From contig JAFVFN010000008.1 of the NCBI GenBank assembly GCA_017475405.1, positions 1,254-65,253 of the forward strand: a stretch of 64,000 nt of DNA, given 5' to 3'. Positions 13,551 to 46,916 of this stretch are shown here, piece after piece (position 1 is the first letter of the stretch; every line of letters begins with the position of its first letter). The DNA is from Elusimicrobiaceae bacterium. Lineage in GTDB: Bacteria; Elusimicrobiota; Elusimicrobia; Elusimicrobiales; Elusimicrobiaceae. The translations under genes and the position numbers were made by a program. The notes below the pieces were generated by a model. It saw nothing but the letters and a program-made list of their open reading frames with translations, had not been told where the DNA came from and did not search any database.

Positions 13551-13738
13551 AATTTAATCTATTTTTGAACTGTATGAAGAATACAGGATACTTCGCAACA
13601 GAAGTAATCAGAAGGGTCAAAAATAGCCGATTAGGCACACAAGAGCGACGGCTTGCGTGTGTCAAGCGTTTCCTGCGTATGCGGGGAACCACGGCTGTTA
13701 TATTAGACTTCCCTTCTGATGCCTAATATGGCAGCCGT
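13551..13738 (+). ncRNA. Pilin leader structured RNA, copy 1
   Basis: P1 AATCTATTTTTGA/TCAAAAATAGccGATT; pseudoknot ATCAGAAGGG (13607-16) with CCCTTCTGAT (13711-20); 16-bp terminal stem ACGGCTGTTATATTAG/CTAATATGGCAGCCGT. Confidence 0.85.
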
Positions 13739-13786
13739 CATTATTTATATATCGTTCAAGAATAGATTTAAAAATAGGAGATATGT

Positions 13787-14335
13787 ATGACAAGAAACAA
13801 AAAAGCATTTACACTAATCGAATTGCTCGTTGTAGTACTGATTACAGGAATTTTAGCAGCCGTGGCGGTACCACAATACCAAAAAGCAGTGGAAAAAAGT
13901 AAAGCTAGCGAGGCTCTAATATTACTTAAAACATTGGCCACTGCTCAAGAAGTATATTATTTAGCGAACGGATCTTATGCAGAGTCCTATACCGAATTAG
14001 ATATTGATATTCCCTGGACAGGAACAACAAAATTTAAACCCGATACTACCGACGCTGTATCCAATGCTGATTGGTCGGCGTCCCTACAGCAGAAGAGTGG
14101 TTATACGAACATTATGCTAGGCCGAATTACTGGTAAATATACAGGAGCTGGATTTATATGGGTACTTACAACAAAATCTGGCCTCAAAGAAAAACAAATC
14201 CTCTGCTTTGAACGGACCAATGGAACTTTTGTTTTTGATACCAACCTATCAAATGGGGCCTATTGCCAGCAAATCATAGGAGGAACTCCTGTTTCTGGCG
14301 GGGCCTCAGGCAGATATTACACCTTACCGTATTAA
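13787..14335 (+). CDS. Type IV pilin-like protein (prepilin cleavage/methylation domain)
   Basis: [31 protein letters not shown]; AGGAGA SD. Confidence 0.9.
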
Positions 14336-14447
14336 TAATTCTGTGTAAACACATGCAAGTAGAAAGCTCTCTAGAAAAAATACTAAAATATAAGAGTCCT
14401 TTTGGCTTTCAACCTTAAGTACAAATCTATTATTTAACGAGGTTCTG

Positions 14448-15527
14448 ATGGAAAAAGAGACCGTTCTAGTCGGCTTGTCCGGTGGGGTAGATTCTGCCGC
14501 TACAGCTGTACTTTTAAAAGAGCAGGGATACCATGTTATCGGTGCTACCATGCTGATTTGGGATCCGTCGCTCCCTGTCCCGAAAGAGGGACACCAAAAA
14601 AATGCCTGTTTGGCTCCGGAAAAAGAGGACTTACAAGAAGTAGAGTCTATTGTCAAAACATTGGGTATTGAGTTTTTGACGGTGGACTGCCGTGAACAAT
14701 ATAAACATACGGTGCTAGATAATTTCCGCTTGGAATATTCCTGCGGACGTACCCCCAATCCGTGTGTATTGTGTAACAGTTTAATCAAATTCGGTGTCCT
14801 TCCTAGCGCCGCTGCGAAACAGGGAATTAAGTTTGACAAATTTGCCACAGGACATTATGCCCGTGTGGAACAAGACCCTAAAACCGGGAAATACCTGCTT
14901 AAAAAAGCTGTGGATCTATCGCGTGACCAGAGCTACTTTTTACACCGTTTAAAACAGGAACAACTCTCCCATGTATTATTTCCGTTAGGTGAAAAAACAA
15001 AACCCGAAATCCGTGAAAAAGCACGTCAGGCCGGGTTGGTAGTCGCTGATAAAGAAGACAGTATGGATTTTTACTGCGGGGATTATAACGATTTATTAAA
15101 CTTCCCCAATAAACCCGGTGAACTGGTTACCTCAGACGGCAAAGTATTGGGACAACATAACGGGATTTGGAACTATACCATCGGCAAACGCAAAGGCCTG
15201 GGTCTAAGCGGATTTGCCGAGCCAATGTATGTAGTTAAAATTGATGCCGAAAAGAACCAAGTCATTATCGGCCCCAAAAGTGCATTGTACTCAGATACAC
15301 TGACTGCCACCAATGTCAGTTGGGTAGCTGGGGAACCGCCAGCCCAAACTTTTGACTGCGAAATCAAAATCCGCAATTTACATGTGCCGGCCAAAGCACA
15401 GGTAACGATAAACGAAGACGGTAGTTTTACAGCCAAGTTTACAGAGCCACAAATGTCTATTACTGCCGGACAAAGTGCCGTTATGTATAACGGGGACATT
15501 GTATTAGGCGGAGGAATTATCCAATAA
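14448..15527 (+). CDS. mnmA: tRNA 2-thiouridylase MnmA
   Basis: SGGVDS, TPNPCVLCN, ATGHYAR, RDQSYFL, TIGKRKGLG and TAGQSAV motifs. Confidence 0.95.
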   Translation: MEKETVLVGLSGGVDSAATAVLLKEQGYHVIGATMLIWDPSLPVPKEGHQKNACLAPEKEDLQEVESIVKTLGIEFLTVDCREQYKHTVLDNFRLEYSCGRTPNPCVLCNSLIKFGVLPSAAAKQGIKFDKFATGHYARVEQDPKTGKYLLKKAVDLSRDQSYFLHRLKQEQLSHVLFPLGEKTKPEIREKARQAGLVVADKEDSMDFYCGDYNDLLNFPNKPGELVTSDGKVLGQHNGIWNYTIGKRKGLGLSGFAEPMYVVKIDAEKNQVIIGPKSALYSDTLTATNVSWVAGEPPAQTFDCEIKIRNLHVPAKAQVTINEDGSFTAKFTEPQMSITAGQSAVMYNGDIVLGGGIIQ

Positions 15528-15548
15528 AACTTGTTCCTTTATCCAAAC

Positions 15549-15579
15549 AAAAAGTACGTGTATCAACCACGTACTTTTT
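15549..15579. terminator. Bidirectional intrinsic terminator (mnmA/dnaJ)
   Basis: AAAAAGTACGTG/CACGTACTTTT between convergent genes. Confidence 0.75.
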
Positions 15580-15603
15580 GTTATATGTTTTCGAGATTCC
15601 CTG

Positions 15604-16716
15604 TTATTTGCAAAACAAGTCTTTAAAGAAACTCTTTTTGCCGCCAGTTTCTTCAGCAAGTGCTTCTAATAATTCCTTTTGTTTAGCAGTCGGTTTCTTG
15701 AGGACCTCAATCTGTACATTGATTAATAAATCTCCAAAACCTTTCTTGCCCAGTTTAGGCATACCGTTACCCTGTACTTTAAGTACCTCACCAAATTGAG
15801 TTCCTTTGGGAATGGTCACTTCCATTTCTTTCCCCTCAATAGTAGGGACCTTGATTGTACCGCCTAATACGGCCTGCGGGTAAGTAATCGGAGCATCAAT
15901 AATTAAATTATCTCCTTCTCGGCGGAAAATCTTATGTTCTTTGACATGCACTTCTACGTACAAGTCTCCAAACCCGCCTCCGTTCTCACCAATGTCTCCG
16001 CCGTTGGATACGCGAAGCGTAACCCCGGTACGTACACCAGAGGGAACTTTGACTGTGATTTTTTCTTTGACGCGTTTGTGGCCCGTACCGCGGCATTCAC
16101 CACACGGTTTTTCAACCACCGTACCTTTCCCCCCGCAATCAGGACAAACCTGCCGCATACTAAAAATCCCTTGCGAATACGTTACCTGTCCGGATCCGCC
16201 GCAGGAACGACACGTCTTTCGGGCACTTCCCTGCGAGGCTCCGCTGCCGTCACACACTGAGCAGTTATCCAAGCGTGTATAATCTACTGGGATCTCTTTG
16301 CCGGAAAACGCTTCTTCCAAAGTTAGGGTTACATCGAGTTTAAGGTCTTCTCCGCGGGTTACGCGCGGTCCGCGGGAACGTCCGCCAAAAGCCCCTCCAA
16401 ACATATCCCCGAATACAGAACCGAAAATCTCATTAATATCCCCAAACCCGCTGGCATTAAAACCGCTAAAACCGCCAGCTCCGTTCACGCCTTCGTGGCC
16501 GTATTGGTCATACATGTGTTTTTTTTGCGGATCGGACAATACAGAAAAAGCTTCGTTTACTTTTTTAAATTGTTCCTCGGCATTTTTATCGCCGGGATTA
16601 CGATCGGGATGGTACTTCATGGCCTGTTTACGGAAGGCCGATTTAATTTCAACCTCGGTAGCCGTACGCTCAATACCAAGGATAGTATAATAATCTTCTT
16701 TCATAGTAGTTGGCAT
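15604..16716 (-). CDS. dnaJ: Chaperone DnaJ
   Basis: J domain with HPD, G/F region, four CxxCxGxG repeats; start 16716 or 16704. Confidence 0.95.
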   Translation of the reverse strand: MPTTMKEDYYTILGIERTATEVEIKSAFRKQAMKYHPDRNPGDKNAEEQFKKVNEAFSVLSDPQKKHMYDQYGHEGVNGAGGFSGFNASGFGDINEIFGSVFGDMFGGAFGGRSRGPRVTRGEDLKLDVTLTLEEAFSGKEIPVDYTRLDNCSVCDGSGASQGSARKTCRSCGGSGQVTYSQGIFSMRQVCPDCGGKGTVVEKPCGECRGTGHKRVKEKITVKVPSGVRTGVTLRVSNGGDIGENGGGFGDLYVEVHVKEHKIFRREGDNLIIDAPITYPQAVLGGTIKVPTIEGKEMEVTIPKGTQFGEVLKVQGNGMPKLGKKGFGDLLINVQIEVLKKPTAKQKELLEALAEETGGKKSFFKDLFCK

Positions 16717-16860
16717 AATAAATTCGTAGTTATATTTTAGCAAATCTAGCACTTATATAGCTAGTGTGCTACTTTAGATTTGGCATGCGCGTACGCTTTA
16801 TGCTATAATATAAGAGCTAAAAAGCGCTTTTTATAAAGTGCGCTGCTAGCGAGTTAACTT

Positions 16861-17169
16861 ATGTACGCAATTATTGAAACTGGTGGAAAACAGTACTGGG
16901 TAAAACCCGGTCAAGATCTGCAGGTTGAAAAGCTGGACGCGGAAGTAGGCGCCAACGTAGAACTCAAAGTTCTCTGGGCCGCTAACGAAGAAGGTACCTC
17001 AGCAGATACCAAAGCCGCTACTGCGGCCAAGGTCACCGCTCAAGTGGTCAAACACCTGAGAGGTCATAAAGTGATTGTCTATAAACGCCGCCCCAAAAAA
17101 GGGTATGAACGTACCCAGGGCCATAGACAAAACTTAACGCAAATTAAAATCACGGATATCCAGTTATAA
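16861..17169 (+). CDS. rplU: 50S ribosomal protein L21
   Basis: MYAIIETGGKQY and GHRQNLT motifs. Confidence 0.95.
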   Translation: MYAIIETGGKQYWVKPGQDLQVEKLDAEVGANVELKVLWAANEEGTSADTKAATAAKVTAQVVKHLRGHKVIVYKRRPKKGYERTQGHRQNLTQIKITDIQL

Positions 17170-17185
17170 ATTGGGAGACTAAACT

Positions 17186-17557
17186 ATGGCACATACAAAA
17201 GCTCAAGGTTCTTCCTCCAACGGAAGAGACAGCCACGGCCAACGTTTAGGGATTAAACGTTACGGCTCCCAGTTTGTAAACGCTGGGGAAATCATCGTAC
17301 GTCAACGCGGTACCAAGTTCCTGCCTGGAACCAACGTATCTCGCGCCAGCGACGACAGTCTCTTTGCCCGCGTAAGCGGTATTGTTACCTTTGAATGGGT
17401 AAGAAGAGGCAAACAACAAATTTCCGTGTACCCCAAAGTTGCGGAAACCAAAGAAGCCAAAGCGCCTGCTAAAAAAACTGCAGCCCCTAAAGCTGCCGCT
17501 AAAAAGGCGCCCGCCAAGAAAGCTGCCAAACCGGCTGCTAAAAAAGCGGACAAATAA
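17186..17557 (+). CDS. rpmA: 50S ribosomal protein L27 with Lys/Ala/Pro-rich C-terminal tail
   Basis: [24 protein letters not shown]; follows rplU. Confidence 0.95.
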
Positions 17558-17571
17558 ACATTTGGCAAATT

Positions 17572-17604
17572 AAGGCGGCGGGAATTTTTCCTGCCGCTTT
17601 TTTT
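17572..17604 (+). terminator. Intrinsic terminator after rpmA
   Basis: GCGGCGGGA/TCCTGCCGC stem plus T run. Confidence 0.75.
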
Positions 17605-17616
17605 GCCAGTAAAACC

Positions 17617-17775
17617 ATGAAACAAGACGATTTACACGTAGTACAGGACGAATGGAGCTACACCGTTACTAAAACATCGGCCCGTAAAAAAGCCAAGCGT
17701 ACTCGCCAAAAGGCGAAGCGGCAACTAAGCAAAAAGCTACTGGCACAAGACGACCCCGGTGAATCGTTGTTATAA
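17617..17775 (+). CDS. Putative 52-aa basic small protein
   Basis: Hand-translated MKQDDLHVVQDEWSYTVTKTSARKKAKRTRQKAKRQLSKKLLAQDDPGESLL; fills the rpmA-obgE gap; no clear SD. Confidence 0.4.
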   Translation: MKQDDLHVVQDEWSYTVTKTSARKKAKRTRQKAKRQLSKKLLAQDDPGESLL

Positions 17776-17783
17776 GGATTTTT

Positions 17784-19163
17784 ATGCAATCAGGCAGTTT
17801 TTTAGACCGTGTTAAAATTTACGTGACCGCTGGTAAAGGCGGAGACGGATGTTTGTCGTTTCGGCGCGAGAAATTCATTGAATTTGGCGGTCCGAACGGC
17901 GGTTGCGGCGGACGCGGGGGAGATGTGATCCTGCGTGCCGAACCAAATTTAACCACGCTCTTAGAACTAGCCTACCACCCGCATATTGACGCTCCTAACG
18001 GTGAAAAGGGAGGCTCTTACAATAAAACAGGCCGTGCCGGTGAAAACCGCTACGTATATGTACCCTGCGGTACCATTGTACGTACGTTGGAAGGAGAATT
18101 TTTAGTTGATATGACCAAACCTGGCCAAGAATTTACCGTGGCCAAGGGCGGTGCGGGTGGACGCGGGAACCAATCCTTTAAAACCCAGCAAAACACGGCT
18201 CCGCATATTGCCGAAAATGGACTCCCCGGAGAAGAAGTAACGTTGATTTTGGAGCTTAAAGTACTGGCCGATCTCGGACTCGTAGGATTCCCCAATGCAG
18301 GCAAAAGTACTTTCTTAAGCCGCATCTCGGCTGCCAGACCGCGTATCGCTAATTATGCGTTTACGACTTTGAACCCCAACTTAGGTATTACATTGCACCA
18401 AGGAGTTAGTTTTGCCACAGCTGATATCCCTGGTATCATTGAAGGGGCCAGTGAGGGGAAAGGACTGGGGATCCAATTTTTAAAACACATTGAACGCACC
18501 CGTGTATTACTACACTTAGTGGATCCAGAAGGATTTGACAGGCTAAGTGCAGAAGAGAGCGTTAAAGTTATTGAAAAAGAACTTAAAAACTTTAATAAAA
18601 AACTCTTTGAAAAACCACGTATTATAGCCGTAAATAAGGCCGATCTTCCTGCTGCCGAAAAAGTTTATAAAACTCTTAGTAAAAAGTTAAAAAAACATAA
18701 AGTAATGCTGATTTCAGCTGCTACGGGACTAGGTGTAAAAGAAGTACTTAACGAGGTGGTCCAAATCTTGTCATCCACCCCTGTTGAGCAACTCACTGTA
18801 GAAGAAGAAAAATCCGTAGTACATAAAGTAGAACCTATTTTTACCATTACGCGCGATGAAAACGATATTATCCATATCACAGGTAAAAAAGTAGAAGAGT
18901 TCATTGCCATGACTAATTTCACGCAACCCGAAGCCGTTACCCGATTAAAAGGTATTTTCAAAAAAATCGGACTTGAAAAAGCACTGCTTAAACAAGGCGT
19001 TCAGGATGGAGACCTGTTAGTCGTTGGCGGTAAAGAGTTTGAATGGAACGGCGATTTTGACGAAGAAGCTCCGCAAGCCCCTGAGCATGCCGGATACAAA
19101 CGCCGGGAAACCAAGGCCGAACGTTTAGCTAAACGCAAAGCAAGACGGGAAGGGAAAAAATAA
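17784..19163 (+). CDS. obgE: GTPase ObgE/CgtA with C-terminal OCT domain
   Basis: Gly-rich Obg fold, GFPNAGKS, YAFTTL, DIPG and NKAD motifs. Confidence 0.95.
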   Translation: MQSGSFLDRVKIYVTAGKGGDGCLSFRREKFIEFGGPNGGCGGRGGDVILRAEPNLTTLLELAYHPHIDAPNGEKGGSYNKTGRAGENRYVYVPCGTIVRTLEGEFLVDMTKPGQEFTVAKGGAGGRGNQSFKTQQNTAPHIAENGLPGEEVTLILELKVLADLGLVGFPNAGKSTFLSRISAARPRIANYAFTTLNPNLGITLHQGVSFATADIPGIIEGASEGKGLGIQFLKHIERTRVLLHLVDPEGFDRLSAEESVKVIEKELKNFNKKLFEKPRIIAVNKADLPAAEKVYKTLSKKLKKHKVMLISAATGLGVKEVLNEVVQILSSTPVEQLTVEEEKSVVHKVEPIFTITRDENDIIHITGKKVEEFIAMTNFTQPEAVTRLKGIFKKIGLEKALLKQGVQDGDLLVVGGKEFEWNGDFDEEAPQAPEHAGYKRRETKAERLAKRKARREGKK

Positions 19164-19176
19164 TTTTCCTTTCCTC

Positions 19177-19728
19177 TCAATAATTCCATCCATATATATT
19201 TGAAGACGACCAGGATACATCTGCCTCAGAATGATTTGTTTCATTTTTACAAATTTGATAGGGAATTCCCGTTTTATTTGATCCATATGCATAACAAACG
19301 GTTTTTCCCGGCGTACGATTAGAATGATTTAAATGGATAAAATATCCTAATACACGATCATGGACATCATCTGTTACTCCTGTTTGGTATAAAGAGCAGG
19401 AAACAGAAGCTACAACATCTTTAAATACCTCTAATCCGCATTCTCCCCATTTATAGTAATATGTTCCATAACTTTCCACTTCTGAAGTTCTTTCTGGCGT
19501 AGGGATTTCTATATCCAAATTTTGGATTCGATCAGTATAAGAACCTGTTGCTAAATAATATACTTCTTCTGCCGCGGCTATTGTTTTGGCTATATGTTTA
19601 ATAGTTGCAAAACGACTTTTCCACACCGCTTTTTGATATTGTGGCACCGCTACCGCTGCTAAAATTCCTATAATTAGCACTACTACCAAAAGCTCTATGA
19701 GCGTAAATGCTTGTTTATTTCCTTGCAT
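19177..19728 (-). CDS. Type IV pilin-like protein (no structured leader)
   Basis: [36 protein letters not shown]. Confidence 0.9.
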   Translation of the reverse strand: MQGNKQAFTLIELLVVVLIIGILAAVAVPQYQKAVWKSRFATIKHIAKTIAAAEEVYYLATGSYTDRIQNLDIEIPTPERTSEVESYGTYYYKWGECGLEVFKDVVASVSCSLYQTGVTDDVHDRVLGYFIHLNHSNRTPGKTVCYAYGSNKTGIPYQICKNETNHSEADVSWSSSNIYGWNY

Positions 19729-19762
19729 AATTATCTCTCCCTATTAGGTATTCTATAGAGAC

Positions 19763-19791
19763 AGAATATCAAAAAAAAAAAAACGCGTCAA
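19763..19791 (-). promoter_or_regulatory. Pilin promoter with poly(T)13 spacer tract (putative phase-variable)
   Basis: Minus strand TTGACG-CG(T13)GA-TATTCT, 17-bp spacer; A13 on + strand at 19771-19783. Confidence 0.7.
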
Positions 19792-19886
19792 GCGAAATTT
19801 TTGGTTCCACAGTTCAACCTGCTAGTGCAACTTTAGTTAGTTTTTATTGTTTGCCTTTTTTAACGATTTCTTGTTACAATGGATTT

Positions 19887-21011
19887 ATGAAGTCCCTGAA
19901 AGCCATTTTCCTTCTCTTGTTGATGACGATCTTCTTGCCGTTACATGCCGGTGGAGGTATTCGTTTTTTACAAAAGGCAGGTAGAGCACTGTCTCCCCAA
20001 GAAGCACGCTTACAACGGGCTATTTCTTATCATATGGACCGTGCCGTACTAAATGCTTCGCATACAGCACAACTAGCAAACACAAACCGGTTGGCTTATT
20101 TTCAATCGTCTCGTACTATTCCTTTTCAACGTATGGCCACAGTCAGTGCCCCAGACCGATATTTGCCGGAGCCCGTAGACCCTTTGTTTATTTTGCGTAA
20201 TGACAAAATGGCCTTTCAATGGTTTGAAACTATAGAAAAAGATCTACATTTTTTGCAAGACCAAAAAGACGCTATTTATAAGACGATAAACTGGCAACGC
20301 GTGTCCCCAGAACAAATGGATTACGCCGCTCTTATTCCAGCAACTGTTCGCAAAATCTTTGTAGGCGAGGAACACAACCAACCTGCCATTTATAAAGCAT
20401 TTGAAAATATGGTATTTCAGTACCAAAAAAAATTTCCGGAACGAAAAATTATTGTTTTAACCGAATTTGTATCAGACCGATTATTACCTTGGCAAAAACC
20501 GGGAAAACCTGTAGGACGTTTGGAGATGCCACTTCGACGTAATTCAAATAAATTTACTTTTTTTAATAAATTTATCCGTGCAGGTATTCAGGTAATCGGT
20601 TTAGAAAATGTAGGATATATTAAAGACCATGAATCTTTGATTACTCCCTCGGAAAGCCAATACGAATCGGTTTACGGTATGCAGGAGCGTAATGCCCACT
20701 GGCGACATATTATCAGCTATGTGGCAGATAATAATCCGGACGCCGTACTTTTTATTTATGCAGGGAATATGCATACACATTACCGGGCACCTTTTACCTT
20801 GGCAAACTCTTCCCCGCAAAACTTTGTAATCCAACTGGAATCTGCTTCTTTGGGAGCAGATATGCCTTTTGGATTTATTATGAAACAAGAACCTTTTACA
20901 CAGGCTTATGCCAATAAATTAACCGTACTAAGTTGGGGCGAAAAAGATCCTGTTTTTCGCACCCGCAGTGGTTTTGATGCTTGTATTATCTTCCCTACGG
21001 AGAACCCATGA
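19887..21011 (+). CDS. Exported hypothetical protein, possibly ChaN/EreA/Tiki-superfamily fold
   Basis: Signal peptide; VGEEH, TEF, GLEN, ERNAHW and YAGNMH pattern resembles the superfamily motifs; fold call is tentative. Confidence 0.55.
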   Translation: MKSLKAIFLLLLMTIFLPLHAGGGIRFLQKAGRALSPQEARLQRAISYHMDRAVLNASHTAQLANTNRLAYFQSSRTIPFQRMATVSAPDRYLPEPVDPLFILRNDKMAFQWFETIEKDLHFLQDQKDAIYKTINWQRVSPEQMDYAALIPATVRKIFVGEEHNQPAIYKAFENMVFQYQKKFPERKIIVLTEFVSDRLLPWQKPGKPVGRLEMPLRRNSNKFTFFNKFIRAGIQVIGLENVGYIKDHESLITPSESQYESVYGMQERNAHWRHIISYVADNNPDAVLFIYAGNMHTHYRAPFTLANSSPQNFVIQLESASLGADMPFGFIMKQEPFTQAYANKLTVLSWGEKDPVFRTRSGFDACIIFPTENP

Positions 21012-21973: not shown

Positions 21974-22008
21974 AGATTTTTGTTATAATAAAAGTGTAGC
22001 AAGAAGAA

Positions 22009-22210
22009 AATTTAATCTGTTTTTGGAAGCGTTTTAGAAACGCTGAGCTGTTATAAACTAACAGCACCAAGTAAGTCCAAAAACAGCTGTTTTAGGTACT
22101 ATACCCATAAGCTGATCCCTTGTTGGTATAGTGCCGAGTGTTTGCCACATGGTGGCAAGCCACGGCTGTTATTGATGGGTTACTTACTTGGACTCGGATA
22201 TAGCAGCCGT
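22009..22210 (+). ncRNA. Pilin leader structured RNA, copy 2
   Basis: P1 CTGTTTTTGG/CCAAAAACAG; pseudoknot CCAAGTAAGT (22067-76) with ACTTACTTGG (22182-91); terminal ACGGCTGTTAT/ATAGCAGCCGT; TGTTATAAT at 21981. Confidence 0.85.
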
Positions 22211-22251
22211 TTTTATTACGTATTTTCCAAAAACAAATTTTAGGAGAATAT

Positions 22252-22773: not shown

Positions 22774-22803
22774 AAATAGCCCGCTCATTAGAGCGGGCTA
22801 TTT
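22774..22803. terminator. Bidirectional terminator (pilin/rplA)
   Basis: AAATAGCCCGCTC/GAGCGGGCTATTT. Confidence 0.8.
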
Positions 22804-22824
22804 GTGTTTGCAAAAGAGAGTTTG

Positions 22825-24025: not shown

Positions 24026-24565
24026 TCAGTTCTTTTCTACTTGCAGGAAGTCCACTTCTACGGGGGTGGCACGGTCAAATACCGTTACCATGACTTTGAG
24101 TTTGTTCTTTTGTTCGTTAACTTCTTCTACAACCCCAATAAAGTGTTTAAACGGACCTTCGGTAATACGTACACTTTCGCCACGTTTAAATTCCACCAAA
24201 TATTTCGGTTTGCCGCCAGGATTATTAATGCGGTCTAAAATTTCGGTGACATCCTCTTCCGACAGCGGCACAGGAGACGGATCACCTAAAAACCCGCTGA
24301 CCCCCGTAATATTGCGAATAAACCAATAAGCTTCGCTGGTCATTTTCATTTCCACAAGCACATAGCTAGGGAAAAATTTACGTTGGTGACGGATTTCTTT
24401 ATTTTGTTTTACTTCGCGCACTTCTTCCGTCGGAACAAGCGCTTGGAAGATTTGTTCACCCATCTGATGGGTTTCCACATCTAACAAAATTTTCTTTTTT
24501 ACTCTTTCTTCGTAGCCGGTTTGTGTATGTACGACGTACCAAGCGGTAGGTGTTTCTTCAGCCAT
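24026..24565 (-). CDS. nusG: Transcription factor NusG
   Basis: WYVVHTQTGYE, FFPSYVLVEM and KOW domain ITEGPF..G.VEEV. Confidence 0.95.
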   Translation of the reverse strand: MAEETPTAWYVVHTQTGYEERVKKKILLDVETHQMGEQIFQALVPTEEVREVKQNKEIRHQRKFFPSYVLVEMKMTSEAYWFIRNITGVSGFLGDPSPVPLSEEDVTEILDRINNPGGKPKYLVEFKRGESVRITEGPFKHFIGVVEEVNEQKNKLKVMVTVFDRATPVEVDFLQVEKN

Positions 24566-24782: not shown

Positions 24783-24857
24783 TGGCAGGAGCGGAAGGAC
24801 TCGAACCTTCAGTCCCGGTTTTGGAGACCGGTGGTTTACCAGTTAACCGACGCTCCC
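24783..24857 (-). tRNA. tRNA-Trp(CCA)
   Basis: Cloverleaf, anticodon loop CTCCAAA, GTTCGAG T-loop, encoded CCA. Confidence 0.95.
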
Positions 24858-26364: not shown

Positions 26365-26437
26365 AGCTGGGAGTGGGAATCGAACCCACGACCTTTTCCT
26401 TACCATGGAAATGCTCTACCTACTGAGCTACCCCAGC
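26365..26437 (-). tRNA. tRNA-Thr(GGT), copy 1
   Basis: Cloverleaf, TTTCC-ATGGTAA-GGAAA anticodon arm. Confidence 0.93.
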
Positions 26438-26463
26438 GCTACTTTGATTACTTCAAATTTATC

Positions 26464-26536
26464 AGCTGGGAGTGGGAATCGAACCCACGACCTTTTCCTT
26501 ACCATGGAAATGCTCTACCTACTGAGCTACCCCAGC
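26464..26536 (-). tRNA. tRNA-Thr(GGT), copy 2 (identical)
   Basis: Exact duplicate of 26365-26437. Confidence 0.93.
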
Positions 26537-26549
26537 GACTCAAATTCTT

Positions 26550-26620
26550 AGCGGGCGAAGGGAATCGAACCCTCGTCACAAGCTTGGAAGGCTAGTGTTC
26601 TACCATTGAACCACGCCCGC
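26550..26620 (-). tRNA. tRNA-Gly(TCC)
   Basis: Cloverleaf, anticodon loop CTTCCAA. Confidence 0.93.
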
Positions 26621-26821
26621 AAAACAATACCCTAATATTATACAAAAAATTATTGCAGCTTCCAAATATTTTTCTGCGTGGGTACCGTCAAAAAGGACCC
26701 CCGTAGGGGTCTATATATTTTTATTATAACAAATTACATAAAAGAGTGCAACAAAATTGTTTATAAAAATATTTTTAAATTAGGCCTTGAAATTTTTTTG
26801 TTTTCCATTATAGTACTAGTA

Positions 26822-26922
26822 AGGGAGTGCCACTTAGGCCCGTTTTAAGGGTATGCCTCTTGTAGGGGAATCGGCCTCCCTGCTAGATTTGAACTCCGGC
26901 ATTATGGGTGCCGGAGTTCTTG
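26822..26922 (+). ncRNA. Candidate small structured RNA
   Basis: TTGAAA-16-TATAGT promoter; GGGAGtGCC/GGCCTCCC closing stem; then 11-bp GAACTCCGGCA/TGCCGGAGTTC hairpin. Confidence 0.35.
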
Positions 26923-27150
26923 TGATATTTGCCAAAAGAGTTTGTTCGCCGTCGTTTTCTAATATAAGCACCTTCAAACTCAGACAAATAAATAGATATT
27001 TCTCTAAATAATAATGAGGATTTTCTTAATAGATTCTCACTTCAAGTTCGTATTTCAATCTTTACAGAAAGCAGCGCCCAACTCAGAATTATTATAACTA
27101 AAATATAGCGGCTTAATATGCAACTTATGCACAAAATATAAAAAGAAGAA

Positions 27151-27222
27151 AGGTGCGGGTGGGAATCGAACCCACGAATAAGAGTTTTGCAGACTCTCGC
27201 CTTACCACTTGGCCACCGCACC
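27151..27222 (-). tRNA. tRNA-Cys(GCA)
   Basis: Cloverleaf, anticodon loop CTGCAAA, U discriminator. Confidence 0.95.
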
Positions 27223-33116: not shown

Positions 33117-33656
33117 TTAGTTATACTTCCACTCTGTATACCCTGCTGATTTTGGAGTATGTGTCGGGACTATAAGACCTGTTTCTAATTTACACAATCT
33201 ATTGGACAAATGATCTAAATCCGTAGTATAGGCTATACATTGCTCCCATTTAGACCTTGATAAATTTCCCTTCTCATAATACTGTTTATAAAAAACATCA
33301 ATACCACCTACTTCCGTTCTACAAGCAATAGCCGTACCATAACTCCGACACTCCCACCCATCAAACAAATAAATAATCTTGGTTACCTCGTCATTTTCAC
33401 CCCTATCCTTTTCTTCTTCATATCCGGCAGGGAGATCTACATCTAAAACCGCTAAATCTATTGCATATTTTCCGTTGGCTAGGAAATATACTTCCTGCGC
33501 TTGAACTATACTTTTCACTAAAAGTTTTAATCTAGCAAATCTACTTTTTGCCACAGATATTTGGTATTGTGGCACAGCTACTGCTGCCAAAATCCCTATT
33601 ATTAATACTACAACGACTAATTCAATTAGCGTAAACGCTTGTTTATTTAGTTTCAT
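33117..33656 (-). CDS. Type IV pilin-like protein
   Basis: [36 protein letters not shown]; AAGGAGA SD before ATG 33656. Confidence 0.9.
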   Translation of the reverse strand: MKLNKQAFTLIELVVVVLIIGILAAVAVPQYQISVAKSRFARLKLLVKSIVQAQEVYFLANGKYAIDLAVLDVDLPAGYEEEKDRGENDEVTKIIYLFDGWECRSYGTAIACRTEVGGIDVFYKQYYEKGNLSRSKWEQCIAYTTDLDHLSNRLCKLETGLIVPTHTPKSAGYTEWKYN

Positions 33657-33706
33657 AATATTTCTCCTTATATGCTTCAATTCTCTGTTATGAAACCCAA
33701 TAAAAA

Positions 33707-33908
33707 ACGGCTGTCTCTTTTGAGCTCATAGGAGTGACCCAATCAAAACAGCCGTGGTCTACCGCAAGACGGTAAACGCTCGGCACAACATAATGGGATT
33801 ATAAGTTCCATCATGCTGTACCTAAAACAGCTGCTTTTGGACTCCTATGATGCCTTTAATATTTAAAAGCTCTCCGTTTCTTAAACGGTTCCAAAAACAG
33901 ATCAAATT
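33707..33908 (-). ncRNA. Pilin leader structured RNA, copy 3
   Basis: Minus strand: TTGCTA-17-TATACT promoter; P1 CTGTTTTTGG/CCAAAAGCAG; pseudoknot TCATAGGAGT (33841-50) with ACTCCTATGA (33726-35); terminal ACGGCTGT/ACAGCCGT plus T run. Confidence 0.85.
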
Positions 33909-33968
33909 ATATGTATAGTATAAGAAGTTTTTTGCTTTTTAGCAAGAAAAATATTTCAAAAAAATGGC

Positions 33969-37571: not shown

Positions 37572-37614
37572 TTTGTTTAACTCTTGCCTAAAATAAGATA
37601 AATTGGATAGATAT

Positions 37615-38204: not shown

Positions 38205-38320
38205 ACTATACCTCATTACTGATAGTGTACATGGTATTACTTTAAAACATGGGTCAAAAGACCTACGTAATTTTAAGGCCTATCCCTGGAATTTATGTTA
38301 TAATAAAAGTGTAGTAATAA

Positions 38321-38524
38321 AATTTAATCTGTTTTTGAAACCGTCTAAGAAGCGGGTTGCTTTAGCAAAACTAAAGTTTCAGTGAGTTCAAAAGCAGTCG
38401 ATTAGGTACAACGCCAACGGAATTGCAAACCTGTTACGTTGTGCTAAATGTTTATCGCATTCGTGTGATAAACTACGGCTGTTATATATTGGGTAACTCA
38501 CTGAGCTCAAAAAATAGCAGCCGT
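38321..38524 (+). ncRNA. Pilin leader structured RNA, copy 4
   Basis: TGTTATAAT at 38296; P1 CTGTTTTTGA/TCAAAAGCAG; pseudoknot TCAGTGAGTT (38379-88) with AACTCACTGA (38495-504); terminal ACGGCTGTTAT/ATAGCAGCCGT. Confidence 0.85.
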
Positions 38525-38573
38525 TTTATTGGGTTTCATAACAGATCGCTGACTACGATTAAGGAGATAAGTT

Positions 38574-39059
38574 ATGAAATCAAATATACAAGCATTTACA
38601 TTAATTGAGCTACTCGTTGTTGTGCTGATTATAGGCATGCTAGTGGCTGTAGCCATACCACAGTATAAGAAAGCTGTTCTTAAAAGTCGTTTAGCCGCTA
38701 TTAAACCTATTTTATCGGCCATTAAAACAGCTGAAGAATCCTATTATTTGGCTAATGGAGAATATACTTATAATATGGATTTATTGGATATTGGGAGTAG
38801 TTGTTCTAGAGAAGCAGATGTAAGTTTGGTCCGATGTGATCCCTATTTTTTAATAGATATTATGGGAGATAGCGGAACCAATTTGAACTGGCGATATATA
38901 GAAGCTGCCTATTGTTTAGGCAAAAAAGTCACATGGAGCGAGTGCGAACCAGCCGATTTTTATTATAGGAGATGGTACAACTACTCAACCTATCCCAATA
39001 AGGAAGAATGTATAGGTGTAACCGACATAGGCAAAGAAATGTGCAAAAGTATAAACTAA
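38574..39059 (+). CDS. Type IV pilin-like protein
   Basis: [36 protein letters not shown]. Confidence 0.9.
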   Translation: MKSNIQAFTLIELLVVVLIIGMLVAVAIPQYKKAVLKSRLAAIKPILSAIKTAEESYYLANGEYTYNMDLLDIGSSCSREADVSLVRCDPYFLIDIMGDSGTNLNWRYIEAAYCLGKKVTWSECEPADFYYRRWYNYSTYPNKEECIGVTDIGKEMCKSIN

Positions 39060-39065
39060 ATAATT

Positions 39066-39098
39066 ATGGGCATCACAATAAGACTTGTGATGCCCTAT
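39066..39098. terminator. Terminator hairpin between pilin and atpC
   Basis: GGGCATCACAA/TTGTGATGCCC. Confidence 0.7.
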
Positions 39099-39114
39099 AT
39101 AACCAATTAAACAA

Positions 39115-39530
39115 TTAGATATGTTTCTTTTTCTTGACTTTCATGCGGGCTATGGCTTGCTTGATTTCCATCTCCGCCAGTTCAAAGTCAATATCTGCAT
39201 CTTTGTTGGAGAGCGATTCTTTTAGCGCTTTAATGCGCTGTTTTTCTTTTTCCTCGTCAATTTCTCCGGCCAAAGCAGCGTTTTCGGCAAACACATTAAC
39301 CACATCGTCTAACACTTCTACAAAACCACCCAATGCGGCGAACTCCTCTTCCTGCCCGTCTGCTTTATACCGAAGAGACCCCATGCCCAGTTGCACCACG
39401 GTTTTTACATGACCGGGCAAAATCCCCATTTCGCCCAAGAGAGCTGGTAAAATAACCATATCTACCGGCTTATCTTGGATAAGCTGTTTTTCGGGCGTAA
39501 CTAAATTCAGTGTTAGTTTTTTGCCGGACA

Positions 39531-39531
<1 letters not shown>
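39115..39531 (-). CDS. atpC: ATP synthase F1 epsilon
   Basis: LVTPEK, GEMGILPGH and GGFVEV motifs. Confidence 0.93.
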
Positions 39532-40961
<1,430 letters not shown>

Positions 40962-41867
40962 TTAACTGTTAAGAGCTTCTGCTCCGTTGACAATATCTAA
41001 AATTTCATTGGTAATACCGGACTGACGTACTTTATTTAGTTTAACACCCAACGCGGTGACCAGTTCTCCGGCGTTCTTACTGGCTGCATCCATGGCATTC
41101 ATGGTGGCTGCCAAGTTCGCAGCTTGAGATTCCAAAAGCACGCGGTATAAATTCGCCTTTATAAGCCGCGGAACCAATAATTTAAAAATTTCCAAAAGTC
41201 CGGGCTCAAACTCAAAATCACGGACCTCTTTTTCTTTTTTTACCTGCTCAAAATCAAAAGGCAACCATTGACGTTCTACTAACGTTTGGCTGGCCAGCGA
41301 TTTAAAATCATTGTAAATCAATGTGACAGAAGCCAGTTTCTCATCCAAAAAAGTCTTGAGTACCGCATCCCCCAAAAGCTCGGCATGTGCATAAGACACT
41401 TTGGGGAATATCCCCACGCTCTCATAGGTTAAATGCAAGTTACGCATTTTAAGGCGGTTCAAAAAGTCACGTCCCTTTTTGCCGATCGCAAAAATAAAAA
41501 TCTCTTTGTCTTTATTTCGACGTAAAAACGCCAGGGCACTTCGTAAAATTACTGCGTTAAAAGAGCCAGTTAAGCCTTTGTCCCCTGTAATAACAATAAG
41601 TCCTATTTTATGTGGATCTCCGCTACGGTTTACAAAAATACGACCGGCCCAGTTTTCACTGCCGTCCTCGGGTTGCGGCAACGCCAAAATATCCTGTTTT
41701 AAATCGTCTACCATTTCAAGCATTTTTTTAGCAAACGGACGAGCGGCTATCATGGAGTCCTGCGCTTTGCGGATGCGTGCATTGGAGATCATCTTCATCG
41801 TCTGCATGATCTGTTGAGTGGACTTGATAGCTTTAATATTTTGGCGTATGTCGCGTAACGATTCCAT
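40962..41867 (-). CDS. atpG: ATP synthase F1 gamma
   Basis: STQQIMQTMKMIS, DKGLTGSFN and NKVRQSGITNEI motifs. Confidence 0.95.
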   Translation of the reverse strand: MESLRDIRQNIKAIKSTQQIMQTMKMISNARIRKAQDSMIAARPFAKKMLEMVDDLKQDILALPQPEDGSENWAGRIFVNRSGDPHKIGLIVITGDKGLTGSFNAVILRSALAFLRRNKDKEIFIFAIGKKGRDFLNRLKMRNLHLTYESVGIFPKVSYAHAELLGDAVLKTFLDEKLASVTLIYNDFKSLASQTLVERQWLPFDFEQVKKEKEVRDFEFEPGLLEIFKLLVPRLIKANLYRVLLESQAANLAATMNAMDAASKNAGELVTALGVKLNKVRQSGITNEILDIVNGAEALNS

Positions 41868-42806
41868 TTATCTGTTTTCCGCTTTTAAGATTTTTACGTA
41901 ATCGGCAATCCCCGTCTCCAAGGTATAATCCGGGGTATATCCCAGTTTTTCTTTGGATTTGGTAATATCTGCCTGCGTTTTTACTTGGAAAAACGCCGCA
42001 TACGGGTTGTCAATATATTCAGGTTCCAAGTGGGTCCCCATCTCTTTGTTTAAGCACGCAATCATTTCATTATAATCGCGCGGGATACCCGTAGCCGCGT
42101 TATAGACACCGGATTCTTTACCGTTATTTAACGCACACAAATTGATTTTCACGATATCTTTTACATAGACAAAATCACGTTGTTGTTCGCCCATTTTGAA
42201 AACACGAGGGCGTTTGCCTTCTTTCATTTGCAAATACAACTGATAGACCATACTGGCCATTTTGCCCTTATAATATTCGCCGGGACCATATACGTTAAAA
42301 TAACGCAATCCAATCACTGTCATATCATGGTTTTCTTCTACAAATTGGCGAGCGACGTTATCCATAACCGCCTTGGAAAACCCATAAATATTTTCCGGAT
42401 GGGTGGGTTGTGTTTCCACATTGGGAACCGGACCGTTGCCATATGTGGCGGCCGAAGAAGCATAAACCACTTTTTTGATCCCATTTTCCGCAGCAAAATT
42501 AAGCAAATTTTTAAACGCTTCTACGTTTTGCTCCATCATGGCCTTTTGGTCCATGACTGTTGTATCGGTAATAGCCGCTTCGTGAAAGATAGTATCAAAA
42601 TACATATCTCCCAATAAAGTTTGGAATAAATCTGCAGCAATCACATCCCCTTTAAAACCAATCAGGTTTTTAAAGTGTCCGTTTTTAGAAAAGTCATCCA
42701 ATACGGTTACTTCATGTCCCTGGGCTTCCAACGTTTTGGCAATATTGCTGCCGATAAAACCGGCTCCGCCTGTTACTAAATATTTTTTTCTGTTTTTAGC
42801 GTCCAT
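41868..42806 (-). CDS. rfaD: ADP-L-glycero-D-manno-heptose 6-epimerase-like NAD-dependent epimerase
   Basis: GGAGFIGS, YASSAATYG, YGFSK and RYFNVYGPGEYYKGKMAS motifs. Confidence 0.85.
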   Translation of the reverse strand: MDAKNRKKYLVTGGAGFIGSNIAKTLEAQGHEVTVLDDFSKNGHFKNLIGFKGDVIAADLFQTLLGDMYFDTIFHEAAITDTTVMDQKAMMEQNVEAFKNLLNFAAENGIKKVVYASSAATYGNGPVPNVETQPTHPENIYGFSKAVMDNVARQFVEENHDMTVIGLRYFNVYGPGEYYKGKMASMVYQLYLQMKEGKRPRVFKMGEQQRDFVYVKDIVKINLCALNNGKESGVYNAATGIPRDYNEMIACLNKEMGTHLEPEYIDNPYAAFFQVKTQADITKSKEKLGYTPDYTLETGIADYVKILKAENR

Positions 42807-42815
42807 AAATTCTCC

Positions 42816-44871
<2,056 letters not shown>

Positions 44872-44872
44872 A

Positions 44873-45367
44873 TTATTTCCCTTTAACTTCCTCTAAAACT
44901 TGTGCCACAATCTGATCAGCCGCGTTGTCAGTAACCTGACGCCCCACTACGCGCGAAGCCGCTAACAAGCTGATAGAGGCAATCTCGCCGCGCACATCAG
45001 ACAGAGCTTTGTTTTTTTCCGCCTCAATTTGTACTTTGGCCTGCTCTATCAGTTTTTCGGCTTGTACTTTGGCTTGCGCTAAGAGATGATCCCGTTGAGC
45101 TTCACCCAGTTTAACGGCCTGTGCCATTTTTTTGGCGGCCTCATCCGATATTTGCGCTAAACGTGCGTCCAGTTCTTGTTTAAGTTGTTCGGCACTTTGG
45201 CGTGCATCGGCAGCCGTTTGCTTGTCTGCGGCAATTTGTGTTTCGCGTTTCTCCAGAGCTTCAATAATTGGTCCCCACGCAAATTTTTTAAGCAAATACA
45301 CCAAAAGCAAAAAGTTACAAACCGTTAGCGCCAATACGCCGTAATCCGGCTTTAACAAATCTTCCAT
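44873..45367 (-). CDS. atpF: ATP synthase Fo subunit b
   Basis: N-terminal TM FLLLVYLLKKFAWGPI plus coiled coil. Confidence 0.92.
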   Translation of the reverse strand: MEDLLKPDYGVLALTVCNFLLLVYLLKKFAWGPIIEALEKRETQIAADKQTAADARQSAEQLKQELDARLAQISDEAAKKMAQAVKLGEAQRDHLLAQAKVQAEKLIEQAKVQIEAEKNKALSDVRGEIASISLLAASRVVGRQVTDNAADQIVAQVLEEVKGK

Positions 45368-45370
45368 AAA

Positions 45371-45601
45371 TTATTTCATGACCATCGTCAGTAAGCAGAT
45401 CACCAAGCCTAACATCGCAGCCCCTTCTAACAAAGCGGCAATAATGATCATCGTGGTACGCAGATCAGAAGCGGCTTCCGGTTGGCGGGCAGAACCTTCC
45501 AGAGCAGCAGCGCCGATTTTACCAAGTCCAAACCCGGCACCCAATACTACCAATCCTGCACCGATACCGGCGGCGATATATTTAAGTGCTACTAGTTCCA
45601 T
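45371..45601 (-). CDS. atpE: ATP synthase Fo subunit c (H+-type motif)
   Basis: GxGxGxG, ARQPE loop, LLEGAA; start MELVALKY with AAGGAG SD. Confidence 0.93.
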   Translation of the reverse strand: MELVALKYIAAGIGAGLVVLGAGFGLGKIGAAALEGSARQPEAASDLRTTMIIIAALLEGAAMLGLVICLLTMVMK

Positions 45602-45639
45602 ACTTTTCTCCTTAGCGGATACGTCCGCTGTTATAAAAT

Positions 45640-46401
45640 TTAATGCGTATGTATAACCGATCCTGCAAAAATAGCAGTCAGCAGGGTAAACACATACGCT
45701 TGTAAAAACGCGACTAACAACTCTAAACACGTCATAAAAATTTCTAATACCATGGCGGGCAATAAGGCTCCTACTCCGGCAGCTTTACTCATACCACCCA
45801 CAATAAAGATAATCAGTAAAAGACAAATCAGTACCATGTGCCCCGAGAGCATATTGGCAAATAAACGAATAGCCAGCACACAGACTTTAATAATAAGACT
45901 CACTACTTCCAACGGGAAAATAAGCGGCACCAGCCACTTCGGCGTACCCGACGGTACAAACCCTTTTAAAAAACCAATGAAGCCATGATACTTAAGACCG
46001 CTAAACACAATCAGTGCTCCCGAACACAACGCAAGCGCTGCCGTTACAGAAATATTAGACGTAGCGGTCTTCATTTCTGGGATCATACCTACTAAATTTA
46101 CCGATAAAATAAACAAAAAAAGTGTACAAAAATACGGCAACATTCCACGTCCTTCTTGTCCCATATTAGGAAGTACCATCCCGTCGCGGATAAACGAAAC
46201 ATATTCTTCTAAAAGCGTAGTAACTAAACGCCCGGCGCGACTGGTGTGTTTGCGCGTGGCCCATGCAAGCGTTAAAATAAGAAGTATACTAACGGTAAAA
46301 ATAGTAACCGAATGGGTAGTAACCGGGAGACGAAATCCGTTGAATACCACTCCCCAATCGTGGTCTAAAATATGGTGAGATATTGTTTCAGCTACGTCCA
46401 T
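45640..46401 (-). CDS. atpB: ATP synthase Fo subunit a
   Basis: LAIRLFANMLSGH and LQAYVFTLLT motifs. Confidence 0.93.
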   Translation of the reverse strand: MDVAETISHHILDHDWGVVFNGFRLPVTTHSVTIFTVSILLILTLAWATRKHTSRAGRLVTTLLEEYVSFIRDGMVLPNMGQEGRGMLPYFCTLFLFILSVNLVGMIPEMKTATSNISVTAALALCSGALIVFSGLKYHGFIGFLKGFVPSGTPKWLVPLIFPLEVVSLIIKVCVLAIRLFANMLSGHMVLICLLLIIFIVGGMSKAAGVGALLPAMVLEIFMTCLELLVAFLQAYVFTLLTAIFAGSVIHTH

Positions 46402-46633
46402 GTTTATCAACCTTTTTCAAATCTATATTTGCTTGACGAGCAACACTGATAATGCGCCACAACCCGAAAGCAAATCCTACTAAAACTCCCCCTACCAAAC
46501 ACCAGGGCAAAGAGCCCAGTTTCCCATCTAACCAATAGCCCGTTACGGCCCCAATAATTTCTGTTAGTGCAAACTCAGTACCTAAAGAAGTAATCTCTAA
46601 ATGGTCTTTAGCACTAAACGGACCTAGTGGCAT
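46388..46633 (-). CDS. AtpZ/AtpI-family membrane protein
   Basis: GYWLDGKLGSLPW..GFAFG; first gene of the atp operon. Confidence 0.8.
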   Translation of the reverse strand: MPLGPFSAKDHLEITSLGTEFALTEIIGAVTGYWLDGKLGSLPWCLVGGVLVGFAFGLWRIISVARQANIDLKKVDKHGRS

Positions 46634-46731
46634 GGAATAAATTCTCCTCTAGCAGGGGATACTTACATTATAAAAAATTAGAGAAGAAAATTCACAAGAA
46701 ATTTTGTTATAATGAAAGTGATGTAAACTAA

Positions 46732-46916
46732 AATTTAATCTATTTTTGAGCCGCATATAGATGCGGGTTTGCTTAATAAGCATCCATCGAAGTCAAAAAT
46801 AGCCGATTAGGTACAATGGGACCGTACATCCTGTTGTACCAAATGCTTATCGTTTATCACGATAAGCTACGGCTGTTGTATTGAGCTTCTTCGATGGGGA
46901 TTAATACAGCAGCCGT
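46732..46916 (+). ncRNA. Pilin leader structured RNA, copy 5
   Basis: TGTTATAAT at 46705; P1 AATCTATTTTTGA/TCAAAAATAGccGATT; pseudoknot CCATCGAAG (46784-92) with CTTCGATGG (46889-97); terminal ACGGCTGTTGTATT/AATACAGCAGCCGT. Confidence 0.85.

Follow-up and report, generated by a model that had tools for sequence, protein, structure and literature searches.

The question raised by this locus is what a long, structured leader, set again and again between a promoter and a gene for a type IV pilin-like protein, does for the bacterium that carries it. The stretch analysed here, called the window, comprises 64,000 nt of an Elusimicrobiaceae bacterium (GenBank assembly GCA_017475405.1, contig JAFVFN010000008.1, positions 1,254 to 65,253; C18:1254-65253 in our own numbering), whose genome of 1.68 Mb (G000) is distributed over 30 contigs and is 93% complete. 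An initial annotation of the window had pointed to five such leaders and had suggested a new regulatory RNA. The analysis described below strongly supports the conclusion that the leader is a real, previously undescribed structured RNA family, and its conserved strands suggest a switch that may act on both transcription and translation.

All five leaders (c1 to c5, Table 1) were matched by a covariance model at the places first given for them, and each is followed, after 37–50 nt, by the ATG of the pilin-like open reading frame (ORF) assigned to it (13787, 22252, 33656 on the minus strand, 38574 and 46954), with a Pfam N_methyl match above the curated cutoff in every case. The order of helices in the initial annotation, including the stem written there as ACGGCTGTT...CAGCCGT, coincides with the RNAalifold prediction on the five copies, in which P1 encloses two hairpins and is followed by P3, by P4 and by a terminal stem ACGGCUGUU...CAGCCGU (P5), and the P4 sequences quoted for it are correct. 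Column identity in the five-way alignment is 66–72%, with invariant blocks between variable hairpins, and compensatory changes are present at 23/63 predicted pairs among these five copies alone. The covariation that had been asked for in a larger alignment was found in two of them. With 43 sequences, drawn from the same genome and 11 other species, double-sided changes were observed at 42/63 pairs, and 94.6% of the cells were paired in comparison with 39–49% when the partners were slid by 1–3 columns. With 90 sequences from other genomes, the corresponding values were 48/63 pairs and 93.7% against 37–45%, with a covariation score of 0.558 against 0.06–0.11. In both alignments the observed pairing values were reached by none of 500 shuffles.

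Since these alignments had been fitted to the model, mutual information was also computed on a structure-blind MAFFT alignment of 126 copies. After average product correction, the top pairs were those of P4, P3, P5 and P1, together with a set that had not been predicted and that joins columns ~56–65 with ~175–184. At paired cells G·U outnumbers A·C by 622 to 52 (~12:1), an excess which indicates that the pairing is read on the sense strand, as RNA; the proposal of an RNA structure rather than a double-stranded DNA site is thus borne out by both the covariation and the G·U excess. The fold is also very stable, as exemplified by c4, whose minimum free energy (MFE) of -65.3 kcal/mol corresponds, with 200 dinucleotide shuffles as reference, to z = -5.05. 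Sequence is kept in P1 and P5 only, while all the other helices drift freely, which is the behaviour expected if the strands of P1 and P5 must serve two partners. The leader is therefore, as riboswitches are, a conserved and covarying structured domain in the 5' untranslated region (UTR) of a gene. An extension of P1, in which the 5' tail AAUUUAAU would pair with the linker AUUA, was considered and discarded, because the linker UUUU found in several species breaks it and mutual information is silent about it.

The leader lies outside the known families, as had been supposed. The Rfam comparison that the initial annotation had requested, carried out with Rfam 15 at the gathering threshold over the whole window, returned five tRNAs only and no leader match, and at E ≤ 10 no match was common to the three leader copies compared. 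In the literature searched on pilins and structured RNAs of Elusimicrobium, Elusimicrobia and Elusimicrobiaceae, the element is nowhere described. The description as a five-copy family holds for the window only, for a profile built from the five window copies recovered 126 full-length copies in the 1.68-Mb genome with nhmmer, and a covariance-model search of the same genome recovered 127. The copies measure ~205 nt, ranging from 185 to 230 nt, and occupy roughly 1.5% of the genome; to our knowledge, ~126 copies per genome is without precedent for a single class of cis-regulatory RNA. Their mean pairwise identity is 59%, and the closest pair reaches at most 84%, a divergence which points to old paralogues and not to a recent burst of a repeat. 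More than 100 natural variants per genome represent an ideal covariation and mutational dataset for an orphan riboswitch-like RNA. Even if the leader should only stabilise its transcript, it is a new family of Rfam grade that would improve the annotation of these genomes.

Regarding its distribution, and considering at most 59 scored candidates per genome, the leader is present in 20/25 genomes of the same genus, the source genome included, and was not found in any of 16 genomes that represent other families of the order. When named genomes were scanned by pattern, it came up in many metagenome-assembled genomes (MAGs) of Elusimicrobiaceae, “Elusimicrobium” and “Candidatus Avelusimicrobium”, recovered from the rumen and from the guts of yak, reindeer, humans and birds; among the pilin homologues, a search for a cultured host gave MAG-derived names only. 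Strong matches (133–166 bits) were also seen in bins labelled Spirochaetes (L052/L073, UMGS352), Muribaculaceae (L078) and Duodenibacillus (L125), as well as in L096. The contigs carried under the labels of other phyla are probably mis-binned or mislabelled Elusimicrobiaceae, and on this basis the leader might be of use as a taxonomic marker. Three further pattern matches (L084, L101 and L112, in Lachnospiraceae, Pyrinomonadaceae and WOR-3 bins) were set aside as chance, as the covariance model did not confirm them.

The placement of the leader directly after a promoter and before the Shine-Dalgarno (SD) sequence of pilin-like genes, as initially described, extends to the family. A -10 hexamer agreeing at 5/6 or more positions lies 8–45 nt upstream of P1 in 105/124 copies, against 17% at random positions; 75 of these 105 hexamers carry the TG extension, and the distance from the -10 element to P1 clusters at 15–16 and 23–28 nt. 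This puts the predicted transcription start at the first nucleotide of the leader (AAUUUAAUC) or ~10 nt before it. An internal promoter between P5 and the AUG was considered and rejected, the -10-like hexamers found there in 47/113 copies being scattered over an AT-rich sequence. With no consistently positioned promoter after P5, expression of the gene would require RNA polymerase to pass the leader. The c1 promoter comes shortly after a hairpin, GCGCATA...TATGCGCG with a TTTTT tail (window 13499-13540), which probably terminates the preceding gene at 12229-13479, and similar terminator-then-promoter junctions precede many other copies.

As for the genes served, an ORF with the prepilin N-terminus [GA]FTLIELLVV begins within 150 nt after 118/126 leaders. 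For 6–8 of the 126 (~5%) no intact pilin ORF was called, among them two with frameshifted pilins and two without any ORF called; behind a few leaders of this genome come a GT2-like glycosyltransferase, a 318-aa protein of unknown kind or frameshifted pilins. After the leaders at C30:22803-23010 and C14:1541-1744, the ORFs resemble frame-shifted translations of a pilin helix (e.g., FHAHRALGRCTHYRHIGSSG), and the pilin genes behind these intact leaders are probably broken. Across species, the prepilin motif follows 59/80 leaders, and other genes follow the remaining 21 (~26%), encoding lipoproteins, a zinc-ribbon membrane protein, GT2 and GT8 glycosyltransferases, a CapD-like dehydratase and TPR proteins. 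The element is therefore not dedicated to pilins, contrary to what had been proposed, and it does not govern the whole pilin repertoire either, since only 119/231 prepilin-type ORFs of the genome carry it. In the other species (loci L050-L129), the prepilin motif often comes 115–390 nt after the leader, and the intervening stretch translates to the recurring VILNLIQDL..., NQVQDD... and ICPPCGE..., which suggests a short repeated element inserted between leader and pilin gene.

How such an RNA might act is indicated by five conserved switch strands, near-identical between copies and separated by the freely drifting hairpins P1a, P1b, P3, P4 and P5b. These are A at the 5' side (UCUGUUUUUGG), B (CCAAAAACAGCCG), C (ACGGCUGUU), D (GCAGCCGU with the U-run) and E, a conserved segment after the U-run, often GGUUUCAUAAACAG. 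A and B form P1, and C and D form P5, a G+C-rich stem (ACGGCUG/CAGCCGU, with all G-C pairs kept) with an immediate U-run, as in intrinsic terminators; U is found at +1 to +4 after P5 in 84–94% of the cross-species copies, and in most copies of the source genome U fills 5–6 of the 8 nt next to P5. Further complementarities connect the same strands. The 3' strand of P1 with its linker, B (AACAGCCG), is the exact complement of the 5' strand of P5, C (CGGCUGUU), and the linker CC, which lies outside P1, varies between C and U only. In the 90-sequence alignment, 98.9% of 710 B:C cells are paired, against 15–57% when slid. When D was withheld, as during transcription, B:C appeared in the MFE fold of 111/113 copies and P1 in that of 2; once D was available, P1 appeared in 105 and P5 in 104 of the 113.

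Segment E is complementary to A and to its extension into P1a, and the A:E duplex amounts to -15.3 kcal/mol for matched strands, -13.3 kcal/mol with the E of another copy (p = 4e-8) and -8.2 kcal/mol after shuffling; across species the difference is smaller (-14.5 matched versus -13.2 kcal/mol mismatched, p = 0.018). In ~60% of the copies E contains CAU and pairs with its own start codon and first codons, at -8.2 kcal/mol matched versus -5.8 kcal/mol mismatched (p = 1e-7); all three nucleotides of the AUG are paired in 69/109 copies. By forcing P1 and P5, E:start pairing was obtained in 83/109 copies and a masked AUG in 71/109, while forcing B:C gave A:E in 65/109; the energy difference between the two forced folds, 1.5 ± 4.9 kcal/mol, makes them near-isoenergetic. 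The complementarities A:B, B:C, C:D, A:E and E:AUG are all present, that of B and C with almost no two-sided covariation.

A further helix accounts for the columns brought out by mutual information. The ~10-nt strand within P1 that was initially taken as single-stranded, here called the J strand, lies immediately before the 3' strand of P1 and forms a long-range helix with the apical loop of P5b, in the apical region of the terminal stem. The helix measures 9–12 bp in ~95% of the parsed copies (113 of the source genome and 79 cross-species), whereas pairing J with the loop of another copy peaks at 5–6 bp in both sets, and its sequence differs in every copy. From the modelled folds we infer that J:loop would be a pseudoknot when P1 and P5 are formed, and would be nested when B:C is formed, extending the antiterminator across an internal loop. 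With linkers of just 0–1 nt, P5b and the full J:loop helix should be sterically exclusive; as both nevertheless covary, P5b may be a transient hairpin, one that would present its loop for rapid pairing with J in the short window before D is synthesised. J:loop may favour either termination or read-through.

Taken together, these features are best accommodated, in our view with moderate probability, by a cis-regulatory RNA that would couple conditional termination to masking of the start codon. Each copy would head a monocistronic mRNA, in most cases one for a type IV pilin-like surface protein, whose synthesis starts at an extended -10 promoter private to that copy. In one fold, A:B (P1) and C:D (P5 with its U-tract, terminator-like) would form and transcription would stop, and in any RNA that reads through, E would be paired over the start codon. 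In the other, B would pair with C (AACAGCCG with CGGCUGUU), a helix extendable by the nested J:loop helix, so that no terminator would form, and the freed A would capture E and expose the start codon. One exchange of strands, in which (A:B, C:D) gives way to (B:C, A:E), would in this manner gate both termination and access to the start codon, and the choice would probably be kinetic, made in the ~40 nt between the synthesis of C and that of D. Beyond the features shown above, what is inferred is that the RNA moves between both folds in vivo and thereby governs termination and translation. The earlier proposal of an attenuator or riboswitch-like RNA is accordingly retained in its first part, given the terminator-like P5, the U-tract and the complementary alternative strands, and abandoned as to a role dedicated to pilins. 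As trigger, a small-molecule ligand and an RNA-binding protein are possible to the same, tentative degree, and the absence of any dedicated trigger is only slightly less so, the outcome then being set by the speed of RNA polymerase, by temperature or by a fixed partial attenuation. If this model is true, the leader would add a large, pseudoknotted type to the known classes of regulatory RNA, would govern half of a 231-gene pilin-like family in a poorly understood gut phylum, and would offer a concrete handle on how the Elusimicrobiaceae manage their surface repertoire.

Several results weigh against such a switch. Changes on both sides are almost lacking from the B:C pairing, whose observed percentage paired is attained in 24 of 500 shuffles; because strand C is invariant, hardly any covariation can be expected and the shuffle control is not decisive, so that simple sequence conservation could explain B:C, a putative pairing that is consistent with the data. 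The U-run is weak in about a third of the copies of the source genome, and the apical region of P5, which spans ~30 nt and contains P5b, is unusually long for an intrinsic terminator; a scan for consensus terminators, limited to loops of 3–8 nt, passes over it. Segment E is missing from some copies, the A:E and E:start pairings are weak in roughly 25–40%, and the forced B:C fold leaves the AUG paired in 42/109. Lastly, searches of the genome for a NusG paralogue, CsrA, Hfq and c-di-GMP enzymes yielded no ligand or protein partner. With tblastn, CsrA gave no match below E = 0.3 and Hfq was also not detected, and the conserved unpaired motif of the leader is AGGUA and not the A(N)GGA of CsrA-type leaders. 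By a crude regular expression, no ORF with a GG[DE]EF, EAL or HD-GYP motif was found in the genome, which makes c-di-GMP an unlikely ligand.

The same failure to find a trigger, a NusG paralogue, CsrA or Hfq would suit a leader that does not switch at all, in which a constitutive 5' UTR structure would be excised or would form a compact, pseudoknotted cap that shields highly expressed surface-protein mRNAs against decay dependent on the 5' end, with P5 and its U-run as a fixed partial attenuator of the expression level. This alternative, which we consider unlikely, agrees with the stability of the fold (z = -5), with its start at or near the predicted 5' end of the transcript and with downstream genes that encode abundant envelope proteins, and A:E would then be a stalk of 14–18 bp around the whole leader, resembling a processing stalk. 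It leaves unexplained, however, why P1 and P5 keep their sequence amid drifting helices, why B can match A as well as C, with a linker that varies by wobble only, why E carries an anti-start codon that covaries with its own first codons, and why a conserved U-tract directly follows P5. If P5 does terminate, the ~210-nt leaders so released might themselves be functional small RNAs that, when abundant from active copies, pair in trans with nascent leaders of other copies and so cross-regulate the repertoire, the pilins being made from read-through. The presence of 126 promoters, each driving a conserved RNA with a terminator-like stem and U-run at its end, and the near-identity of the switch strands between copies are in keeping with this idea, yet the tight cis layout with E, SD and AUG argues for action in cis, no Hfq-like chaperone was found in the genome, and the copy-specific J:loop words have no excess of genome matches over control words taken from P3. 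Trans action is pure conjecture, and we regard such a role as improbable. More improbable still is a combination of the two modes, in which the shared switch strands would be accompanied by the private 10-bp helix as an “address” whose strength sets the read-through threshold of each gene, and terminated leaders would act in trans to give hierarchical or mutually exclusive pilin expression; if true, it would be an RNA analogue of antigen-gene exclusion for a surface repertoire of more than 100 members, operating beside the phase-variable poly-T promoters of the other ~110 pilin genes.

The mixed set of targets, with pilins, GT2/GT8 glycosyltransferases, a CapD-like dehydratase and lipoproteins, recalls the regulons of RfaH, LoaP and UpxY as generally known, and would suit a site for protein-dependent processive antitermination like ops/JUMPstart-RfaH or the LoaP and UpxY leaders. 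These systems serve pilus, polysaccharide and surface-structure genes in long operons. The leader shares with them the tie to surface-structure genes, but its targets are short and monocistronic, for which processivity is unneeded, and it matches no JUMPstart (ops-like) or other Rfam model. Besides, tblastn with E. coli NusG and RfaH queries found one NusG-like gene (C18:25285-25818) and no paralogue in this 93%-complete genome, and an antitermination site is in our judgement very improbable. A DNA-level element, either a site of recombination or one end of a mobile cassette by which pilin genes are spread, would fit the way in which leader and pilin units are scattered singly among housekeeping genes, and is nonetheless barely credible: the 12:1 ratio of G·U to A·C marks pairing read as RNA on one strand, an identity of 59% does not fit recent transpositions, and promoter, SD and AUG are integrated with the fold.

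Compared with known systems, a cis-acting switch finds its nearest functional precedent in the c-di-GMP-II riboswitch upstream of Clostridioides difficile pilA1. In common with it and with other terminating riboswitches and attenuator leaders, the leader is a 5' element with conserved junction nucleotides and a pseudoknot-type helix before a type IV pilin gene, and has a terminator-like stem and U-run whose 5' strand may pair upstream instead. It differs in that it has no Rfam match and lacks the GEMM-I/GEMM-II consensus, in its ~126 copies per genome instead of a few, in the copy-specific sequence of its long-range helix and in the additional strand after the terminator that would mask the start codon. 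T-box leaders also measure ~200 nt, with several stems, competition between terminator and antiterminator and many copies per genome, and the linker AUUAGGUAC loosely resembles the T-box sequence; in contrast with them, the three copies compared gave no RF00230 match at E ≤ 10, there is no specifier-loop architecture, and the targets are surface proteins and not aminoacyl-tRNA synthetase or amino-acid genes. The ompA 5' UTR and the leaders of S-layer genes are structured stabilisers of abundant envelope-protein mRNAs, built as simple hairpins. The leader resembles them as a long, stable 5' structure on abundant surface-protein mRNAs, whereas they lack its terminator-like stem and U-tract, its dual-partner strands and its covarying pseudoknot. 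What is new is the family, its copy number, the private long-range helix and the putative start-codon mask placed after the terminator, while the kind of mechanism is already known.

The features of the five window copies are collected in Table 1. The U-tract of c1 is weak (tail CATTATTTAT), and segment E of c4, listed with its partner in the MFE fold, alternatively pairs A at -17.3 kcal/mol.

Table 1. Promoter elements, leader RNAs, switch segments and pilin-like genes of the five window copies (window positions; energies refer to duplexes).
Feature	Position	Strand	Remarks
c1 -10 box TATTAT, preceded by TGC	13539..13544	+	ends 15 nt before C of P1, within the 15-16 nt cluster of the family
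c1 leader RNA	13551..13742	+	covariance model 156.3 bits
c1 J strand ATCAGAAGGG	13607..13616	+	perfect 10-bp complement of 13711-13720
c1 segment B CAAAAATAGCCG, P1 3' strand + linker	13618..13629	+	pairs A 13559-13567 (P1); also complements C
c1 P5 stem-loop, C ACGGCTGTT ... D GCAGCCGT	13691..13738	+	loop strand CCCTTCTGAT at 13711-13720
c1 segment E GTTCAAGAATAGAT	13754..13767	+	complements A + extension; -20.6 kcal/mol
c1 pilin-like gene, 182 aa	13787..14335	+	Pfam N_methyl E = 3.2e-8
c2 extended -10 box TGTTATAAT	21984..21989 (hexamer)	+	sequence read
c2 leader RNA	22009..22214	+	covariance model 206.6 bits
c2 J strand CCAAGTAAGT	22067..22076	+	perfect complement of 22182-22191, ACTTACTTGG
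c2 P5 stem-loop + U-tract (GCAGCCGTTTTT)	22162..22214	+	RNAalifold fold
c2 segment E TTCCAAAAACAAATT	22225..22239	+	complements A; -16.1 kcal/mol
c2 pilin-like gene, 173 aa	22252..22773	+	Pfam N_methyl E = 1.1e-8
c3 promoter TTGCTA, 17-nt spacer, TATACT	33917..33945	-	promoter scan
c3 leader RNA	33703..33908	-	covariance model 201.4 bits
c3 J strand TCATAGGAGT	33841..33850	-	perfect complement of 33726-33735, ACTCCTATGA
c3 P5 stem-loop + U-tract	33702..33755	-	RNAalifold fold
c3 segment E GGGTTTCATAACAGA, with CAU	33684..33698	-	pairs A (-16.1 kcal/mol) or start-codon region (-11.9 kcal/mol)
c3 pilin-like gene, 179 aa from ATG at 33656	33117..33656	-	Pfam N_methyl E = 3e-7
c4 extended -10 box TGTTATAAT	38299..38304 (hexamer)	+	sequence read
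c4 leader RNA	38321..38528	+	covariance model 185.3 bits
c4 J strand TTCAGTGAGTT	38378..38388	+	11-bp complement (one G·U) of 38495-38505, AACTCACTGAG
c4 P5 stem-loop + U-tract	38475..38527	+	MFE fold
c4 segment E GGGTTTCATAACAGA	38531..38545	+	pairs GUUAUGAAAUC around AUG, -14.3 kcal/mol, in 270-nt MFE fold
c4 pilin-like gene, 161 aa	38574..39059	+	Pfam N_methyl E = 2.4e-6
c5 extended -10 box TGTTATAAT	46708..46713 (hexamer)	+	sequence read
c5 leader RNA	46732..46920	+	covariance model 161.2 bits
c5 J strand TCCATCGAAG	46783..46792	+	10-bp complement (one G·U) of 46889-46898, CTTCGATGGG
c5 P5 stem-loop + U-tract	46869..46919	+	RNAalifold fold
c5 segment E GTCTAAAAATAGAT	46930..46943	+	complements A; -14.7 kcal/mol
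c5 pilin-like gene, 157 aa	46954..47427	+	Pfam N_methyl E = 3.1e-8

The 231 prepilin-motif ORFs of the genome, mostly with 150–175 residues after the motif, make up roughly 7% of its DNA. Most of the 112 that have no leader share a uniform promoter, TTGACGCG-(T)12-GATATT, which is found in the window at 19763-19791, upstream of the pilin gene 19177-19728 on the minus strand, and at ~100 more sites genome-wide. Owing to the homopolymer spacer of T12–13, these leaderless genes are candidates for phase variation by slipped-strand mispairing. Their UTR is short, and in it UCUCUCUUUAUA can pair with UAUAAGGAGAGA over the SD, a predicted hairpin that would sequester this site. Some poly-T promoters also stand back-to-back with leader promoters (AAAAAAAAAAAACGCGTCAAGCG...TTGCTATAAT...leader), for example upstream of C30:23010, C12:89288 and C16:163607, which makes divergent pairs with one pilin gene of each class. 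Elsewhere in the window, five tRNA genes are located at 24786-24857 and 26365-27222 on the minus strand, four of them clustered, and the single NusG-like gene of the genome (~24026-24565, minus strand) adjoins them.

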